Positions 1 to 7,088 of a stretch of DNA of 64,000 bases are shown here, piece by piece (the stretch's first letter is position 1; every line of letters starts with the position of its first letter). The notes beneath the pieces were generated by a model. It searched no databases and was not told where the DNA came from. It saw only the letters and a list, made by a program, of their open reading frames with translations. Source of the stretch: Patescibacteria group bacterium (GTDB lineage Bacteria; Patescibacteriota; Microgenomatia; UBA10105; UBA927); contig JBMOPU010000012.1 in the NCBI GenBank assembly GCA_049322955.1, forward strand, positions 681,517 to 745,516, in the 5' to 3' direction. Made by a program: the position numbers and the translations under genes.

Positions 1-283
1 TTCTTTAAAGAACTTAAATGTAGATAATATAAAAATTATATTTCAAACTTACCTTAGTGAATATATTTTTGCTAGCTTATTACAAAAAGCAGGACAAAAA
101 TTAGGAAAAATATCACATAAAGACGCCATAAGAATCGAAAAAAGAATGAAAGGATATATCTCATCTAAAGTTAATTTAGACTTATCGAATATTGACTTCT
201 CAAAGATGGATTGGAATGGTCAATCAGGAAAAGCATTTGTTCAAAGTATTTTTGAAAAAGCATATGAGTTGATGGAGACATAA
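1..283 (+). CDS. 3' end (93 codons) of an upstream gene running off the window start. Its TAA stop overlaps the ATG of the next gene (TAATG). Possibly the partner that precedes QueC-like genes in Qat-type loci.
   Basis: Frame 2 is open from position 2 to the TAA at 281-283. Its composition (A+T-rich, Lys/Ile/Asn-rich) matches the downstream island genes. Translational coupling to 283..1593. Confidence 0.4.
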   Translation, partial: SLKNLNVDNIKIIFQTYLSEYIFASLLQKAGQKLGKISHKDAIRIEKRMKGYISSKVNLDLSNIDFSKMDWNGQSGKAFVQSIFEKAYELMET

Positions 284-1593
284 TGACAGTGAATACAATA
301 CATGTAAAAACAGGTAAGGAAGATATAAAAATAGCATCTGGTTTGGGAAATCGGATTATTGATTTTACTTCTACAAACACGAACCAGACACTAGAAAAAC
401 CCTTATGGTTGAATCGAGATTTTTACAATTTAGAGTATCAACCAGTTCTTGTTGATTTGTTTCGCTTAGCAACCTCTGTTTTTATCATCGACAAAACTAT
501 TCCGAGAATTGAAGCTTACGATCGTTGGACAAGAGATATAGAACTAAACTTGCCCGTAAGTGACCCATCAATGTGGTACGAGAATACGAATTTAATTGTT
601 AGATTTCTTAGTTTTCTCACAGGAGATCATTGGAAGGTACTTTTTACCCAAGATGAATCCACACAACCACAAAAGGATAAGCAATTAACGAAAAAAGGCC
701 ATAAGCTAGACGTAAAATCAGTTTCACTTTTTTCTGGAGGTTTAGATTCCTTCATTGGTGTAATAGATCAAATAGTTGATACCGAATCAGTAGCAATGAT
801 TGCTCACTACGATCAGGGGCAGGTTTCTAAAGTACAAAAATTATTACATGCTAGCTTGGTGAGCCAATTCCCCTCTGCAAAGGTAGAATTATTACAATTT
901 TTTGTTCAGCCTTTAGCAACCAGCGAAAATACCATGAGAAGTAGATCTCTGCTTTTTCTATCTTTAGGAAGCATAGTTGCATCTAGTATAGGTGTCAAAG
1001 AATTAATAGTTCCTGAAAACGGTTTTATAAGTTTAAACGTGCCTTTAACATACAATCGGCTTGGAAGCTTAAGTACCAGAACAACTCATCCAAACACACT
1101 AAATCTCTTTAATAGACTACTCCAAAACTTAAGAATAGGTGTTTTGGTATCCGATCCTTACAAATTTAAGACTAAAGGGGAAATGTTATCAGACTCTAAG
1201 AGCCTTGAGTATTTGGTCAGTGTTGCAAATGAAACGATGTCTTGTGCACATGCGAATGTTGGTATATATCAACATTTACCACCAAATAGACATTGTGGAT
1301 ATTGCTTGCCTTGTTTAATCAGGAGAGCTGCATTTCATAGAGTTGGCCTTGATGACCCAAAGCACTATACCTTTGATGTATTAGATTTAGATTTTTTAGA
1401 ACAAGATAGTAGCAAAACTAGTGACCTTAGGGCTGTTTTACATAGCATTGAAAGTCATAAGACAAATTCAACATTAACAAATATATTGAAGACTGGACCT
1501 ATATTTCCCATAAATGACTTAGAAAATTTTTGTAAGATATACAATATGGGAATCCTGGAATTAGAAAGCTTTTTAAGTGTATATAAAGATTAG
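283..1593 (+). CDS. QueC-like PP-loop ATPase (7-cyano-7-deazaguanine synthase fold) with a roughly 140-aa N-terminal extension. QatC/Cap9/DpdC-like.
   Basis: SGGLDS PP-loop at about aa 150. RSRSLLFLSLGS and PENGFISLNVPL blocks resemble QueC core motifs. The C-terminal CGYCLPCLIRR cysteine cluster resembles the QueC zinc site. Tight coupling to the downstream TatD gene. Confidence 0.75.
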   Translation: MTVNTIHVKTGKEDIKIASGLGNRIIDFTSTNTNQTLEKPLWLNRDFYNLEYQPVLVDLFRLATSVFIIDKTIPRIEAYDRWTRDIELNLPVSDPSMWYENTNLIVRFLSFLTGDHWKVLFTQDESTQPQKDKQLTKKGHKLDVKSVSLFSGGLDSFIGVIDQIVDTESVAMIAHYDQGQVSKVQKLLHASLVSQFPSAKVELLQFFVQPLATSENTMRSRSLLFLSLGSIVASSIGVKELIVPENGFISLNVPLTYNRLGSLSTRTTHPNTLNLFNRLLQNLRIGVLVSDPYKFKTKGEMLSDSKSLEYLVSVANETMSCAHANVGIYQHLPPNRHCGYCLPCLIRRAAFHRVGLDDPKHYTFDVLDLDFLEQDSSKTSDLRAVLHSIESHKTNSTLTNILKTGPIFPINDLENFCKIYNMGILELESFLSVYKD

Positions 1594-1599
1594 TGTATT

Positions 1600-2346
1600 A
1601 TGGATTTTAGTAAACAATTTGATTATATCGACACTCACTGTCACCTAGACTTGTATAAAAACTATACAGAGGTTATTGAACAGTCTAAAATGTCAAACAC
1701 TTCGATTGTTGCGGTAACAAACCTTCCAACAGTGTTTGAGCGAGAATGCAAGCTATTCAAAAACTATTCAAATGTAATTGTCGCATTAGGTTTTCATCCG
1801 CAATTAGTGAAATCTCATGGAGATCAGGTAAGTCAGATGTTAAGCTTTATGTCTAAAACGCAATTTATCGGTGAAATAGGGCTAGATTATCAAGAAAATA
1901 ATGATGACCTAAAAACGAAACAAAAATACATATTCCAACAAATATTGGACGGTGCAGCAACATATAGGACCAAAATACTTTCTGTGCATAGTAGAAAGTC
2001 CTCCGAAGATGTAGTAGCTATGATTGGATCTAATTTCCCCGGAAACATTATTCTTCACTGGTATAGCGGGTCACAATCGACGTTAAAAAAGGCTTTGTCT
2101 AATGGATATTTATTTTCCGTTAATCCAGCTATGACATTTTCAGCTAGTGGAAGATCTATTATTAATGGTTTGCCACTTGAAAAAATTTTAACTGAAACAG
2201 ACGGTCCATTCACGGAGGTGAATAATAAACAAAGTATCCCTTCAGACATAAGTTTGGTTCTGGACTACTTGGCAAAGTTACATAATCAAACAACTCAAAA
2301 TATCAAAGAAATAATTAAAAATAACTTTTTGAATATTTTGAATTAA
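1600..2346 (+). CDS. TatD-family metal-dependent hydrolase/DNase (QatD-like)
   Basis: N-terminal DTHCHLD motif, IGEIGLDYQ, LSVHSR, ILHWYSG, TETDGPF. This is the full TatD metal-ligand set. 6-nt gap after the QueC-like gene. Confidence 0.8.
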   Translation: MDFSKQFDYIDTHCHLDLYKNYTEVIEQSKMSNTSIVAVTNLPTVFERECKLFKNYSNVIVALGFHPQLVKSHGDQVSQMLSFMSKTQFIGEIGLDYQENNDDLKTKQKYIFQQILDGAATYRTKILSVHSRKSSEDVVAMIGSNFPGNIILHWYSGSQSTLKKALSNGYLFSVNPAMTFSASGRSIINGLPLEKILTETDGPFTEVNNKQSIPSDISLVLDYLAKLHNQTTQNIKEIIKNNFLNILN

Positions 2347-2352
2347 ACAGAT

Positions 2353-3069
2353 ATGGCAACTATTTATGGTCAACCCAGCCGATATCTCAATGCGAATAAA
2401 ACCATAAGCAAATACGGTGCATTAGCCTACCTAATTTACTTTACAGTTATCATCGGAATTGTTATTTGGCGCTTATCAATAGCCTCGTTCTCATTGCCTG
2501 CTGTTTTCGCTATCTCACTTGTATTTGGCCCGATATTACTCGTTACAGACTCACTCATGAGAAAAGAGGAGTCACTAATGTATAAGTTCCGCAGTGGCAT
2601 TGTTGGAGAAAAGCTAATCGGCGATGAATTAAAGAAACTATATGCAAGTTATACGGTATTTGAAGATGTTCATGTCCCGGGCAAGAAAGAGAATATTGAT
2701 TTTGTGGTCGTTGGCGCTACAGGAATTCATGCAATCGAGGTTAAAAATCATCATGGAAAGGTGGGTTTTGATGGAGATGCCCTCACCTTAAACGACAAAC
2801 CATTCGAAAAGGACTTTCTAAGACAGGCCATGCGCGAAGCAACCTCTCTCCATGATTATCTTGTGTCGTCGGGGATTTCTAATGCGTTTGTTGTTCCTAT
2901 CATTGTCTTTTCTCATCGCTTTGCTCTAGTTAGATTTGGGATTCAGCCTATTAAAAATGTTCGTGTTATTCAGTATCGCTGGCTCAACAAAATGATAACC
3001 AGCGAACCGAGAAGTTATCCAGATCAAAAAGTGGTTGATCTAATAAAAAATACCTACATTCAGGCCTAG
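2353..3069 (+). CDS. NERD (nuclease-related domain) protein with two N-terminal transmembrane helices
   Basis: NIDFVVVGATGIHAIEVKNHHGKV matches the NERD core (ID-x-vv-x-G-x-x-x-IE-x-K). Hydrophobic helices at aa 20-65. 6-nt gap after TatD. Confidence 0.65.
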   Translation: MATIYGQPSRYLNANKTISKYGALAYLIYFTVIIGIVIWRLSIASFSLPAVFAISLVFGPILLVTDSLMRKEESLMYKFRSGIVGEKLIGDELKKLYASYTVFEDVHVPGKKENIDFVVVGATGIHAIEVKNHHGKVGFDGDALTLNDKPFEKDFLRQAMREATSLHDYLVSSGISNAFVVPIIVFSHRFALVRFGIQPIKNVRVIQYRWLNKMITSEPRSYPDQKVVDLIKNTYIQA

Positions 3070-3109
3070 TGGCCTGTGTAAGCAAGCTTTTTTGTAAAGT
3101 TGCGGTCAG

Positions 3110-3346
3110 ATGTTAGAATATAAATATATGAATAGCGATTCCATGAATTTGAAAGAGAAAAAAGAGTTTGGAGATAAAGCTCGTGTTGCTAGAGAGAAGT
3201 TATCCCTAACTCAAGCAGATGTAGCCAAAAAAGCCAATATGACCGTCAACTACTACGCCATGATAGAGCGCGGTGAAGCTAATCTGTCCTTTGAAAAAAT
3301 GAAGAGTATCGTAAAAGTTCTGAAACTCAAGATCACTATTTCCTAG
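3110..3346 (+). CDS. XRE/Cro-C1-type helix-turn-helix transcriptional regulator
   Basis: LSLTQADVAKKANMTVNYYAMIERGE is a classic HTH_3 signature. Small protein at the operon end. The true start may be an internal Met. Confidence 0.6.
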   Translation: MLEYKYMNSDSMNLKEKKEFGDKARVAREKLSLTQADVAKKANMTVNYYAMIERGEANLSFEKMKSIVKVLKLKITIS

Positions 3347-3605
3347 CATCAAGCACTAGCTTGGCTGATTCTCTCATCATTTCGACCAGTTTTTCAGCCT
3401 CTTCAAATGTCGCTCTCTTGGGATTCGTTTGTTGTAGGCTCTCCAGAGCAGATTTGAACATCTGATCGTGATTTGCAGTATCTATAGCAAATTGCAATGT
3501 CTCTCTTGGTACTGCCTCAAACTTTTCCTTGCCGATAGCGGTAATCTCATCCCACGGCAACGAAACTATACTGCTATTTTTATCCATGAACGTATTATAG
3601 TCCAA
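3336..3605 (-). CDS. Hypothetical 89-aa protein downstream of the PLD-like gene
   Basis: ORF in the low-GC island, co-directional with the PLD-like gene at a 33-nt spacing. No recognisable motif. Confidence 0.35.
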   Translation of the reverse strand: MDYNTFMDKNSSIVSLPWDEITAIGKEKFEAVPRETLQFAIDTANHDQMFKSALESLQQTNPKRATFEEAEKLVEMMRESAKLVLDARK

Positions 3606-3638
3606 GAAGCTTACTAGAGGAAATTGCCTATATTTCCA

Positions 3639-4079
3639 CTACATGTATTTTCCGTACCCAATAAAGTTAAATAAATCTACGGCGAAGCCGCCGTCCTCAA
3701 GACGGCGCATAAATTCTCTACTTTTTGCCTGAGAAAGGATATTTAGGCTTCCTTCCCAGAGTATATTGCGGTCGATAATGGCTAGTTTCCGGTGGTGATT
3801 ACCTGTACAAAGCAGTACTTGGATGCCAATATTCTCAAATTCTTGGATTTCTAGCTCAGACTGCTCATCATAGCCATCTATGTGCGCTCGTGGGTCTCGA
3901 GTGACTATGTAGATTTTGACATCGCGCGCAACCAAGCGTCGAAACACTGGCCAAAAAGTCTTCATTCTAGCTATGGTAATGAATGGACTTTCGATAATTA
4001 CCTCATTCTGACTATTCTCTAAGTCTGTCAGAAATTTGGAGAAGAAGGTTTTCTCGTCGTGCAAAGAGGTTTTAATCAT
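3639..4079 (-). CDS. Small phospholipase-D-family (Nuc-like) nuclease, HxKx4D
   Basis: HHRKLAIID followed by GSLN fits the HxK(x)4D(x)6GSxN PLD motif. GGAGG RBS 6 nt upstream of the ATG on the minus strand. Confidence 0.65.
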   Translation of the reverse strand: MIKTSLHDEKTFFSKFLTDLENSQNEVIIESPFITIARMKTFWPVFRRLVARDVKIYIVTRDPRAHIDGYDEQSELEIQEFENIGIQVLLCTGNHHRKLAIIDRNILWEGSLNILSQAKSREFMRRLEDGGFAVDLFNFIGYGKYM

Positions 4080-4189: not shown

Positions 4190-4657
4190 ATGGCAGAATT
4201 CCCCCACCACGAAATGAGAGGTGATGAGTCTCGCGTAGTACTTCTACAGGCCCTTCGGGCAATGCAACATCGCATCAGCATTCCGCAACTCATCGACGGA
4301 TCAAGGCTTTCTCCACTTATCAAATTGGGGCTCAATAATCTGATTATGTGTGAAGGAGGCAAGTTTAAATCCGTTCGGGCGGTTCAAGAACTTACGGCAC
4401 TGGATGTGCCGACGCTCATGTTGGAGGGTGGAATTTACCATCTCCACAGGGTCATGCGACAAAATGAAAGAAAAATTGTTCGTAATCTGATGCCGCTTGA
4501 CGATGTTGTCGTCATTGGCCCAGAAAGCATTTTTCGTTACGGTGACCCATCAATTCCCGACAGTGGCTATGGGGAAACGCTAAATAGAATTCCTAACCTC
4601 AGAATGGTGGAAGACGTGATTGACGCGGTACGGTATCTTCGGGAAAGGAACGCGTAG
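4190..4657 (+). CDS. Hypothetical protein (uncertain ORF at the island/host junction)
   Basis: 155-aa ORF with intermediate G+C. No motif recognised. The alternative minus-strand reading is shorter. Confidence 0.25.
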   Translation: MAEFPHHEMRGDESRVVLLQALRAMQHRISIPQLIDGSRLSPLIKLGLNNLIMCEGGKFKSVRAVQELTALDVPTLMLEGGIYHLHRVMRQNERKIVRNLMPLDDVVVIGPESIFRYGDPSIPDSGYGETLNRIPNLRMVEDVIDAVRYLRERNA

Positions 4658-5137: not shown

Positions 5138-6187
5138 TTAGTGGAGCGAGTTGTGAACGATCTGTACCACAAAGTCATCAAGCGTCATCCCGTGTGCTTT
5201 GATACTCGCCGTCATGGCATCCCGGGGATCCGGATCAAAGCCTGCATTGGCGTTGGCTTCGAGAAAGTACCACATATTATTTTTCGTATTGAACCGCAGA
5301 TCAAAGCGCGCATAATCCCGAAGACCTAGCGCGTAAAAGGCTCGGATGGAATCTTTGCGAATGCCGGTATCTATCCCTGACTTCAGTTCTTTGGGAGGAG
5401 CGATAAAGTGACAGCTTTGGTATGCGGCCGTGTTTTTTGTCCATTTTTCATCAAAGCCATAGATATTCCATTTATTTTTCCCTTTTGATTTGAATGCGAT
5501 TTCCGCAATGGGAAGTGCATACGTTTTGGTGGGTGTCTCGAGCACAGTGACCTGCAGTTCTTTGCCGGGAATAAATTCCTCCGCTAAAAGCGCCTGTTTA
5601 TGATTTTTTCGCATGGTCTGCACGATTTTCTTAAACTGTTCGTAGGTGGTGGCGATTGATTTGTTGGTAATGCCGATACTGCAGTGTTCAAATGCAGGCT
5701 TGACGATAATCGGAAATTTTCCAGGAAGCATTTTTCGGCTTATGCGGTCATGCAGACGGATAATCGTATATTTCGGCGTCGGCAACGCATATTTTTCAAA
5801 CAAACGTTTTGTTTTCAATTTATTATTGGAAATTTGAATGGCTTTAAATGAGGATCCTGAATACGGAATATGCAGTCTTCCCAATATTTTGGCAATCTCG
5901 ACCTCCATTTTCTTGCTGTCCACGAGATTAAAAACAAAATCTGCTTTGAGATTTTTAAGTTCCGAAAGATCATCGGGTTTTACTTTAATAATCTGTACTT
6001 TATATCCGCGTTTGCGAAAAAGTGCGGTCATATACCGCACGATATCGTCGGTTTGGTTGTCGACGAGTGCATGTTCGGAACTGAAATACGTGTCAGTAAT
6101 ATCCTTGGGAACGTAATGATACAGAATCGCAATGGTGTGCGATTTTTTTGATTTGATATTTTTCTTTTTTGATTTCATAGAACGCAA
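5138..6187 (-). CDS. ATP-grasp enzyme of the D-alanine--D-alanine ligase family
   Basis: Blocks IVKPAFEHCSIGI, EEFIPGKELQVTVLE, ARFDLRF and MWYFLEANANAGFD match the Ddl/ATP-grasp C-terminal fold. The Lys-rich N-terminus is atypical. Confidence 0.7.
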   Translation of the reverse strand: MRSMKSKKKNIKSKKSHTIAILYHYVPKDITDTYFSSEHALVDNQTDDIVRYMTALFRKRGYKVQIIKVKPDDLSELKNLKADFVFNLVDSKKMEVEIAKILGRLHIPYSGSSFKAIQISNNKLKTKRLFEKYALPTPKYTIIRLHDRISRKMLPGKFPIIVKPAFEHCSIGITNKSIATTYEQFKKIVQTMRKNHKQALLAEEFIPGKELQVTVLETPTKTYALPIAEIAFKSKGKNKWNIYGFDEKWTKNTAAYQSCHFIAPPKELKSGIDTGIRKDSIRAFYALGLRDYARFDLRFNTKNNMWYFLEANANAGFDPDPRDAMTASIKAHGMTLDDFVVQIVHNSLH

Positions 6188-6277: not shown

Positions 6278-6350
6278 GGACGATTAGCTCAACGGCTAGA
6301 GCACTTCGTTTACATCGAAGGGGTTGGGGGTTCGAATCCCTCATCGTCCA
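6278..6350 (+). tRNA. tRNA-Val (anticodon TAC)
   Basis: Hand-folded cloverleaf. Acceptor GGACGAT/ATCGTCC, D-stem GCTC/GAGC, anticodon stem CTTCG/CGAAG with loop TTTACAT, T-arm GGGGG-TTCGAAT-CCCTC. Confidence 0.85.
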
Positions 6351-6419
6351 CTGAATTTGCTCTGTGACGCAGTGTGGGTATCAGGGTATAATTCATTGCA
6401 AAGTGGTGTGATCGGTTTT

Positions 6420-6492
6420 GCTGAGGTAGCCAAGGTGGTCACGGCGCCTGTCTGAAAAACAGGTTATGCGTGTTCGACTCACGCCCTCAGCA
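6420..6492 (+). tRNA. tRNA-Phe (anticodon GAA), CCA encoded at 6493-6495
   Basis: Acceptor GCTGAGG/CCTCAGC, anticodon stem CCTGT/ACAGG with loop CTGAAAA, T-arm GCGTG-TTCGACT-CACGC. 3-bp D-stem with a 9-nt loop containing GG. Confidence 0.75.
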
Positions 6493-6540
6493 CCATAGTC
6501 GTCTATCAGGGTCGAATTAGGAAAGCACACGTGCTTTGAG

Positions 6541-6636
6541 TATAATATCGTCGCAAGGGAGTGCGTTATGTGGAGAGCCCTTGCGACACTCTGGTAGAAA
6601 GGGAGGTTGGAAGGGAAACGTCGTTTCCCGTCCATG
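6541..6636 (+). promoter_or_regulatory. tRNA-Gly leader: TATAAT box followed by a conserved two-hairpin leader (copy A of a repeated motif)
   Basis: TATAAT at 6541. Hairpin GTCGCAAGGG...CCCTTGCGAC and hairpin GGGAAAC-GTC-GTTTCCC. About 75% identical to copy B at 6737-6830, with compensatory stem changes. Confidence 0.45.
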
Positions 6637-6639
6637 AAA

Positions 6640-6711
6640 GCGGCGTTAGTTCACCGGTAGAATGTCTCCTTGCCAAGGAGAAGGTAACGGGTTCAATTCC
6701 CGTACGCCGCT
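6640..6711 (+). tRNA. tRNA-Gly (anticodon GCC)
   Basis: Acceptor GCGGCGT/ACGCCGC, anticodon stem TCTCC/GGAGA with loop TTGCCAA, T-arm ACGGG-TTCAATT-CCCGT. Confidence 0.85.
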
Positions 6712-6736
6712 CAGAGAATCACTATCCAAAATAGGT

Positions 6737-6830
6737 TATAATTATGTCGCGAAGGTGTGCTATATGTATGAGCCCTTCGCGACTCTTTGGTAAATAGGAT
6801 CGTTGGGAAGGGAACATCGTTTCCGTCCCA
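6737..6830 (+). promoter_or_regulatory. tRNA-Gln leader: TATAAT box plus conserved two-hairpin leader (copy B)
   Basis: TATAAT at 6737. Hairpin GTCGCGAAGG...CCTTCGCGAC (a compensatory A-T to G-C change relative to copy A). Second hairpin GGGAAC-ATC-GTTTCC. Confidence 0.45.
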
Positions 6831-6836
6831 GAGAGG

Positions 6837-6908
6837 TGCGGGGTCGTTCAACGGTAGGACACCTGCCTTTGGAGCAGGGTATTCTTGGTTCGAATCCAAG
6901 CCCCGCAG
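6837..6908 (+). tRNA. tRNA-Gln (anticodon TTG) with U1:A72 first pair
   Basis: Acceptor TGCGGGG/CCCCGCA, D-stem GTTC/GGAC, anticodon stem CCTGC/GCAGG with loop CTTTGGA, T-arm CTTGG-TTCGAAT-CCAAG, discriminator G. Confidence 0.85.
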
Positions 6909-6914
6909 CTTATA

Positions 6915-6945
6915 CAAAAATTGCCCATATTGGGCATTTTTTGTA
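6915..6945 (+). terminator. Rho-independent terminator after the tRNA cluster
   Basis: GCCCA-TAT-TGGGC hairpin followed by ATTTTTTGT. An A-tract upstream makes it potentially bidirectional. Confidence 0.6.
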
Positions 6946-7088
6946 TATACGGGGTTTATGGTAAGAACCGACATTGGTTCGAAAATGAGGAGTCGTTATA
7001 GCGACAACGATCGCTGTAACAGCGAATCATTCATGGAGTCTTGCTTTGCGACACGAATATCTTCCAAGCCCCGCAATCTGCATTAAAT

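Follow-up and report, generated by a model that had tools for sequence, protein, structure and literature searches.

Four transfer RNA (tRNA) genes lie in tandem on the + strand of a 64-kilobase (kb) stretch of DNA, hereafter referred to as the window, from an uncultured groundwater bacterium of Candidatus Gottesmanbacteria (Patescibacteria, also known as the candidate phyla radiation, CPR). They encode tRNA-Val (6278-6351), tRNA-Phe (6420-6495), tRNA-Gly(GCC) and tRNA-Gln(UUG), and were located with ARAGORN and Rfam (Table 1). We focused on the two leaders of ~95 nucleotides (nt) that precede the last two genes, and refer to the leader before tRNA-Gly as copy A (6541-6639) and to that before tRNA-Gln as copy B (6737-6836). 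Both have one layout, in which a TATAAT box is followed after 3 nt by hairpin 1, a 20-nt linker, hairpin 2, 5-6 unpaired nt and the tRNA. Global alignment gave 74.0% identity between the leaders, compared with 49.1 ± 2.5% (maximum 55.7) for shuffled sequences, which bears out the original prediction of two ~95-nt leaders about 75% identical that share TATAAT and two hairpins; the tRNA-Gly and tRNA-Gln bodies were 63% identical by the same alignment method. The arms of hairpin 1 (GTCGCAAGGG/CCCTTGCGAC in copy A, GTCGCGAAGG/CCTTCGCGAC in copy B) are 100% complementary in both copies, and a degenerate pattern of this hairpin matched twice in 64 kb, where 0.02 matches were expected. Hairpin 2 consists of an outer helix of 4-5 base pairs (bp), a 1x1 A·G internal loop, an inner helix of 6-7 bp and a 3-nt loop, while the linkers are pyrimidine-rich at the start and purine-rich later. 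Both leaders folded more stably than shuffled controls (z = -3.7 and -4.5). A covariance model run with filters off detected no third copy in the window, tRNA-Val, Phe, Glu and Lys all being without one, in agreement with the earlier statement that the motif does not precede tRNA-Val, Phe and Lys.

We then aligned eight hits, amounting to seven distinct sequences from three species plus one strain variant, to the covariance model. Standard pairs filled 94.1% of the pair cells, as against 39-52% when the partners were slid by 1-3 columns, compensatory changes on both sides were found in 13 of the 22 pairs, and the observed covariation score was reached by none of 500 shuffles; with so small a sample and an alignment fitted to the model, these statistics are supportive rather than conclusive. 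Hairpin 1 showed compensatory changes in 4 of its 10 pairs with 97% of cells paired (e.g., AAGGG/CCCTT to GAAGG/CCTTC and GTCGC/GCGAC to GTTGC/GCAAC), and hairpin 2 showed them in 9 of 12 pairs (e.g., GGGAAAC/GTTTCCC to AAAACC/GGTTTT in the inner helix). The A·G internal loop of hairpin 2 was present in every copy, with both flanking helices varying. The covariation first noticed in hairpin 1 is therefore real, but the single change then described proved to be two compensatory pairs between A and B (stem position 6 goes from A-T to G-C and position 8 from G-C to A-T); likewise, hairpin 2 is conserved as proposed, but its extent had been drawn too short (full spans in Table 1). G·U pairs occurred on the + strand only, and single-nucleotide polymorphisms in copy-B hairpin 2 of a near-identical strain (L003) converted a G·U to a G-C pair and a U-A to a U·G pair. 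These strand-specific G·U pairs and interconversions are as expected of an RNA read from the same strand as the tRNA, rather than of a DNA palindrome, and both hairpins are RNA-level structures under selection.

Exact-pattern scans, which needed at least 20 fixed bases and would let diverged copies escape, returned one match among 185,579 genome species representatives (L002, a Candidatus Gottesmanbacteria metagenome-assembled genome), a single metagenome contig (L003, from a near-identical strain of the window organism) and no match in a viral collection. L002 contains the same Val-Phe-Gly-Gln cluster with both leaders, before tRNA-Gly and tRNA-Gln. Further loci were reached through homologues of the adjacent Ddl-like protein, which were all Gottesmanbacteria-like, plus one through the EamA neighbour. 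Among them, L004 (Ddl-like protein 89% identical) carries the A leader before tRNA-Gly and a diverged variant before tRNA-Phe (TATAGA, 3 nt, GTTGCGAAC...GTTCGCAAC, linker, TGGAGAAAAACC...GGTTTGTCTCCA), which has the same architecture with other stem sequences. Copies in relatives scored 63-101 bits with the covariance model. The motif was absent from L006, L007, L009, L011, L013, L014, L016, L019-L021 and L022, though the tRNA genes are kept there, with leaders that are either short (TATAAT 9-29 nt from the tRNA) or long but unrelated. L002 and L011 are equally near the window (Ddl-like protein 93.7%), yet the motif occurs in L002 only. Within the present sampling, the motif is confined to three species, one of them represented by an additional strain variant, and close relatives differ in whether they have it. 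Each locus holds one or two full copies, joined in L002 by an isolated hairpin 2, all within the one tRNA cluster; no copies outside tRNA leaders were found in the 64 kb or in the related loci searched with the model, the whole genomes of these species not having been searched. The isolated structure, in the Val-Phe spacer of L002 (4656-4689), is a lone hairpin-2-like stem (TGGGGAAAAC...GGTTTTGCCCCA) with no promoter, and is near-identical to the second hairpin of the tRNA-Gln leader in the same genome. This second hairpin can therefore exist as a module of its own, and it seems to be homogenised within a genome.

Among the window, L002 and L004, leader A retained 89-91% identity, much as first and second codon positions did, while third codon positions of the adjacent Ddl-like gene retained 45-50% in the same three genomes and the spacer just 5' of TATAAT retained 49-51%, equivalent to a shuffled control (49.6 ± 2.4). 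Leader B was 69.5% identical between the window and L002. The onset of conservation is sharp, at TATAAT, which excludes transfer of the whole Phe-Gly spacer by recombination. All stem nucleotides are identical among the A orthologues, which differ only at three linker positions, in the hairpin-1 loop and in the tail, and the copy-A linker is near-invariant across the three. Copy A is under sequence constraint beyond structure alone, as would be expected if it were specifically recognised by a factor, probably protein in nature. The window by itself, with only two copies that stand side by side in a rearrangement-prone tRNA cluster, might be taken to hold a neutral relic, namely a recent local duplication or recombination tract without function. 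We consider this very unlikely, given that L002 has orthologues of both A and B, so that the copying of A to B predates the split of the window and L002 lineages, that leader A is 89-91% identical where the DNA immediately 5' of TATAAT in the same inter-tRNA spacer shows no more than random identity, and that the stems are kept by compensatory changes. These comparisons indicate that selection, not recent duplication, maintains the tRNA-Gly leader. The proposal that the leader rather than the tRNA is the repeated unit gained support from the orthologues in L002 and L004 and from the compensatory changes in both hairpins; in place of a recent duplication devoid of covarying homologues, we found A and B in L002 and A with the Phe variant in L004.

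In 12 non-redundant loci of relatives, an exact TATAAT lay at most 120 nt upstream, on the correct strand, of 32 of the 60 tRNAs, compared with 4% expected; before tRNA-Gly and tRNA-Gln it lies 93-94 nt upstream on the + strand. Some tRNAs of the clade have only 9-10 nt between TATAAT and the mature 5' end, a spacing that fits a -10 box with a start ~7 nt downstream. To judge from this enrichment, TATAAT is a genuine tRNA promoter signal in the clade and the module carries its own promoter. The early idea of a module shared by tRNA transcription units is thus supported as regards the promoter signal, but its distribution is much narrower than that wording implied. Past tRNA-Val, terminator-like calls were restricted to the 6911-6947 site and the tRNA-Gln anticodon arm. 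With a single real terminator, at the cluster end, read-through of the leaders by upstream transcripts is possible, and because no terminator lies between the four tRNAs each leader would also form an internal spacer of read-through RNA. No intrinsic terminator or attenuator was called at either hairpin, hairpin 2 having no U tract and being followed by the tails UGAAA and GAGAGG. In all copies, hairpin 1 starts 3-4 nt after TATAAT.

Upstream of copy A, the sequence ATCAGGGTCGAAT is similar to the CAGGGTATAAT promoter before tRNA-Gly in L004, L011 and L013, and a promoter of the CAGGGTATAAT type also precedes the window tRNA-Phe (6379-6393). The upstream sequence is probably an old tRNA-Gly promoter in decay, now stranded 5' of the leader module.

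Table 1. Features of the tRNA-Gly and tRNA-Gln leaders and adjoining elements (window coordinates)
Feature	Position	Strand	Basis
Probable decayed older tRNA-Gly promoter, ATCAGGGTCGAAT	6504..6518	+	Inferred from repeat with relatives' CAGGGTATAAT
TATAAT, -10 element of copy A	6541..6546	+	Sequence; intergenome conservation begins exactly here
Hairpin 1, copy A: 10-bp stem 6550-6559/6578-6587, 18-nt loop	6550..6587	+	Inverted repeat, minimum-free-energy fold, covariation
Linker, copy A: ACUCU, then purine-rich GGUAGAAAGGGAGGU with Shine-Dalgarno-like GGGAGG	6588..6607	+	Sequence, alignment
Hairpin 2, copy A: UGGA-A-GGGAAAC / GUUUCCC-G-UCCA, 11 bp, 1x1 A·G internal loop, 3-nt loop	6608..6634	+	Inverted repeat, fold, covariation
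Unpaired A-rich tail UGAAA, copy A, adjoining expected RNase P site	6635..6639	+	RNase P site inferred from mature tRNA 5' end
tRNA-Gly (GCC), no encoded CCA	6640..6712	+	ARAGORN and Rfam, 65.1 bits
TATAAT, -10 element of copy B	6737..6742	+	Sequence; clade-wide TATAAT enrichment before tRNAs
Hairpin 1, copy B: 10-bp stem 6746-6755/6774-6783, 18-nt loop	6746..6783	+	Inverted repeat, fold, covariation
Linker, copy B: UCUUUGGUAAAUAGGAUCGU	6784..6803	+	Sequence, alignment
Hairpin 2, copy B: UGGGA-A-GGGAAC / GUUUCC-G-UCCCA, one G·U pair on + strand	6804..6830	+	Fold, covariance model, covariation
Unpaired tail GAGAGG, copy B, before tRNA-Gln	6831..6836	+	Sequence, ARAGORN
tRNA-Gln (UUG)	6837..6909	+	ARAGORN and Rfam
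Strong bidirectional intrinsic terminator at end of Val-Phe-Gly-Gln cluster	6911..6947	.	Inverted-repeat and terminator calls

We favour, with moderate confidence, the reading that the motif is a lineage-restricted, promoter-fused, structured 5' leader, i.e., a 5' external transcribed spacer (ETS), of tRNA precursors in a small Gottesmanbacteria subclade. The module begins with a sigma-70-type -10 box, and hairpin 1 follows 3-4 nt later; a linker rich in purines leads to hairpin 2, beyond which 4-6 unpaired and mostly A-rich nt adjoin the mature tRNA 5' end. Transcription, on the same strand as the tRNA, is predicted to reach the module by two routes, namely initiation at its own promoter and read-through from upstream tRNA promoters. 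The leader folds independently, and RNase P would then cut at the tRNA 5' end, as suggested by its position and by the absence of a terminator before 6911. On the basis of general pre-tRNA processing biology, the hairpins may prevent mispairing of this long leader with the tRNA, may leave a short, defined A-rich single strand as an RNase P entry site, and may guard precursor or spacer ends against exonucleases. The module was copied locally between tRNA genes, from Gly to Gln and Phe, before the window/L002 split.

Several points weigh against this ETS reading, in addition to the modest size of the covariation set. The transcription start, the RNase P cleavage and the effect on processing are all deduced from sequence. 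A canonical start ~7 nt downstream of TATAAT would drop the outer 3-4 bp of the hairpin-1 stem, and the full hairpin 1 would be certain in the read-through RNA only. If the hairpins were simple stabilisers, this would leave unexplained why both stems, and the linker for the most part, are invariant across the three A-type orthologues. Moreover, at least eight other related species, the closer ones with Ddl-like proteins 87-94% identical, keep the tRNA genes without the motif, so that the function of the leader must be dispensable or replaceable. A bolder version, which we regard as doubtful, holds that the strictly conserved tRNA-Gly leader is a natural factor- or ligand-responsive RNA that gates RNase P, or a stable RNA released by RNase P, with a Shine-Dalgarno-like, GGA-rich linker that titrates the 16S anti-Shine-Dalgarno (anti-SD) tail or an RNA-binding regulator; in both cases, the transcription of tRNAs would in this CPR bacterium be tied to a second, regulatory output.

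Other explanations start from the same observations. It is possible, though not probable, that the excised ~90-nt leader is itself the product and acts in trans as a small RNA, a protein sponge or a mimic pairing with the 16S anti-SD tail. Stems and linker are invariant in the three A-type orthologues while neutral sites are saturated, and the leader has a hairpin at each end with an exposed purine-rich, SD-like or GGA-rich middle, much as stable small RNAs usually have end hairpins around a single-stranded middle. With one bulge, the A linker AGAAAGGGAGGU could pair with a typical 16S 3' tail, the anti-SD sequence used being the general one and not that of this genome. Copy A also contains AAGGGA three times and GGA four to five times, but the majority of the GGA motifs lie inside stems rather than exposed in loops, where a CsrA/Rsm-type sponge would present them. 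Furthermore, the B and Phe copies show little conservation of the linker, sites complementary to it occur in the 64-kb window at chance level (5 vs 2.0 expected, one being the element itself), and accumulation of the fragment is a prediction from sequence only. An rrn-like antitermination or chaperone leader, with hairpin 1 as boxB and CUCUUUGG as boxA for NusB-NusE, is improbable. In rrn leaders the boxB stem-loop comes before boxA, which reads UGCUCUUUA in E. coli (PMC2724277). The B-type hairpin is directly followed by GACUCUUUGGUAA, sharing CUCUUU with this boxA, and the B linker GACUCUUUGG recalls it. However, CUCUUU is absent from the A type (ACUCUGGUAG or ACCUCGGUAG), by far the better conserved of the two, and from the Phe variant (ACCAUAUAGG), part of the boxA-like stretch falls within the hairpin-1 stem, and a tRNA cluster of ~630 nt hardly needs processive antitermination. 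As a single-stranded core resembling boxA, the B type offers GACUCUUUG (6/9, partly in the stem) and the A type ACACUCUGG/ACACCUCGG; in the Phe variant it is absent.

The position of hairpin 1, which begins 3-4 nt after the -10 box and overlaps the expected start site, could also point to a DNA-level element, either an operator or cruciform over the start site or a small mobile repeat beside promoters (a miniature inverted-repeat transposable element, a repetitive extragenic palindrome or IS200-type ends). The presence of the motif in L002 and its absence from the equally similar L011, together with the decayed promoter copy upstream in the window, would fit such an element. We judge it quite improbable, since the strand-specific G·U pairs and G·U/G-C interconversions point to RNA and three distinct stem sequences would require three protein specificities. 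The copies are also few and belong to one tRNA cluster, with no others in the 64 kb or the searched loci and with exact-pattern hits limited to the one species representative and the one metagenome contig, none being viral; terminal inverted repeats and target duplications were not seen. The least probable alternative in our view is a leader-peptide attenuator, in which a 9-codon open reading frame (ORF) in the hairpin-1 loop, preceded by AAGGGAG, would be translated and control the fold. In window B and the three A copies, an SD-like GGGAG or AAGGUG does precede the ATG by 6 nt, and all four ORFs stop within the linker. But L002 B and L004 Phe have ACG in place of the ATG, L002 B is also thrown out of frame by a 1-nt insertion, the substitutions among A copies are all non-synonymous (W/S/C, A/P, LW/PR), no Gly or Gln codons are available to sense the downstream tRNA, and no terminator follows. 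The original prediction had listed these ORFs (MWRALATLW and MYEPFATLW) as probably coincidental, and the loss of the ATG in two copies and the non-synonymous changes in copy A agree with that judgement.

Bacterial tRNA leaders are usually regarded as short and disposable. Here, a ~95-nt module has been copied before different tRNAs and is under selection about as strong as that on the non-synonymous (first and second) positions of the adjacent gene. Should it act on precursor stability or on how RNase P gains access, or give rise to a functional fragment, the leader would represent a new cis-regulatory or non-coding RNA class. CPR bacteria have no cultured representatives for genetics, and their RNase P RNAs are divergent (PMC8172020). 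The narrow distribution of the motif limits its impact for now.

Several other structures were observed in the tRNA spacers of these genomes. Motif-free Gly-Gln spacers in L009 (2045-2119), L011 (4095-4174), L020 (421-652, reverse complement) and L022 (55-139) contain tandem GTTCATGG/GTTCATAG repeats that terminate in a hairpin and a T-run directly 5' of tRNA-Gln. The TATAAT of tRNA-Gln in L014 (4367-4408, reverse complement) sits inside the loop of a terminator-like hairpin (ACAGCTGATGC-TATAAT-GAGCATGAGCTGT, then TTTTT), so that a promoter is nested within a terminator. A small GIY-YIG-type ORF (MYYVYVLYSKKDGKLYIGSTPDLQKRF...) lies between tRNA-Phe and tRNA-Gly in L007 (~1850-2090, reverse complement). 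Long, GC-rich structured leaders also stand after TATAAT and ahead of tRNA-Leu genes in L002 (840 to ~940, reverse complement), L003 (~4380-4463) and L004 (5041 to ~5110, reverse complement); they are unrelated in sequence to the motif, and that of L003 holds a copy of the tRNA-Leu 5' end (GCCGAGGTG). Public short-read assemblies break in the cluster, L001 ending in copy-A hairpin 2 (window ~6609) and L018 at tRNA-Val; the breaks are probably due to the repeated leader.

Directly 3' of the cluster terminator (window 6949-7078, +), we also observed a conserved structured element of ~125 nt, which recurs just after tRNA-Gln in L002 (~5218-5345), L003, L009, L011, L020 and L022 and is thus conserved more widely than the leader motif. 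It consists of a closing stem (GGGGUUU/AAGCCCC) and three internal hairpins, with compensatory changes in 10 of 32 predicted pairs, many G·U pairs on the + strand, and fold z-scores of -3.2 on the + strand compared with -1.6 on the - strand. Its ends (5' CGGGGU and 3' ATCCAAGCCCCGCA) reproduce acceptor and T-stem sequence from the neighbouring tRNA-Gln, and it returned no Rfam match and no ARAGORN call. This element could be a tRNA-like RNA derived from tRNA-Gln or the remnant of an integration site. The genes neighbouring the cluster are of Patescibacteria/CPR character (a Ddl-like ATP-grasp protein, EamA, CofD, a short UvrC and others). Window positions 1-4000 have a GC content of 36%, compared with ~50% elsewhere in the window, and carry QueC-like, TatD and NERD-domain genes; this segment may be foreign DNA.

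Further candidates were rejected. A leader-trailer helix around tRNA-Gly (CUCUG/CAGAG), predicted in the window, is not conserved in L004 and is weaker in L002. All copies are predicted to form a short third helix in the linker (CUCU/GGAG in copy A), but they differ in its register and partner columns, and we regard it as opportunistic. In the A type alone, the 3' arm of hairpin 1 could instead pair with the linker over 8 of 10 bp, which does not amount to a conserved switch. An antisense ORF of 80 amino acids (6393-6635) is not conserved and is frameshifted in L002.

We finally compared the leader with known systems. Searches of the window, the region and ten related loci against Rfam 15, at gathering thresholds and at permissive E-values, recovered tRNAs only, the best overlap with the leader being CRISPR-DR36 (14 bits, E = 4.3), and literature searches retrieved no description of a comparable leader. 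With T-box leaders the motif shares a structured leader RNA tied to tRNA biology. T-boxes, however, stand before amino-acid or aminoacyl-tRNA synthetase genes, measure at least about 200 nt, and have a specifier loop, a T-box sequence and a terminator or sequestrator; the motif has none of these hallmarks and no Rfam match. The boxB-boxA-boxC leader of rrn operons, which serves Nus antitermination, similarly has, in a stable-RNA transcription unit, a promoter-proximal stem-loop followed by a pyrimidine-rich single strand, to which CUCUUU of the B type adds a likeness, but the best-conserved A type is without the boxA core and the motif precedes tRNAs rather than 16S ribosomal RNA (PMC2724277, PMC3177189). 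A synthetic RNase P riboswitch built into a tRNA 5' leader resembles it in that leader structure sets the exposure of a single strand by the RNase P site; that device is engineered and ligand-dependent, whereas the motif showed no conserved alternative fold across copies (PMC7897497). A stable hairpin at or very near the transcript 5' end also brings to mind stabilisers of the ompA type. The hairpin of the E. coli ompA 5' untranslated region is a 5'-terminal stabiliser stem-loop; the motif differs in that its stem is so near the -10 box that part of it may escape the own-promoter transcript, and in that the sequence of copy A is conserved as well. Like 3'ETS-leuZ of E. coli, reportedly a spacer-derived regulatory fragment, the leader could persist as a fragment, here known from its sequence alone. 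The closest likeness is to the external and internal transcribed spacers of bacterial tRNAs, in that the motif lies between a promoter and a mature tRNA 5' end, on the tRNA strand, with removal by RNase P expected. Typical leaders of this kind are short and unconserved, and most in this clade span 9-29 nt after TATAAT, whereas the motif is a discrete ~90-nt unit with two covarying hairpins that recurs across species before several tRNAs. What appears to be new is therefore a discrete, conserved and covarying module that includes the -10 box, is common to different tRNAs and belongs to no curated family.

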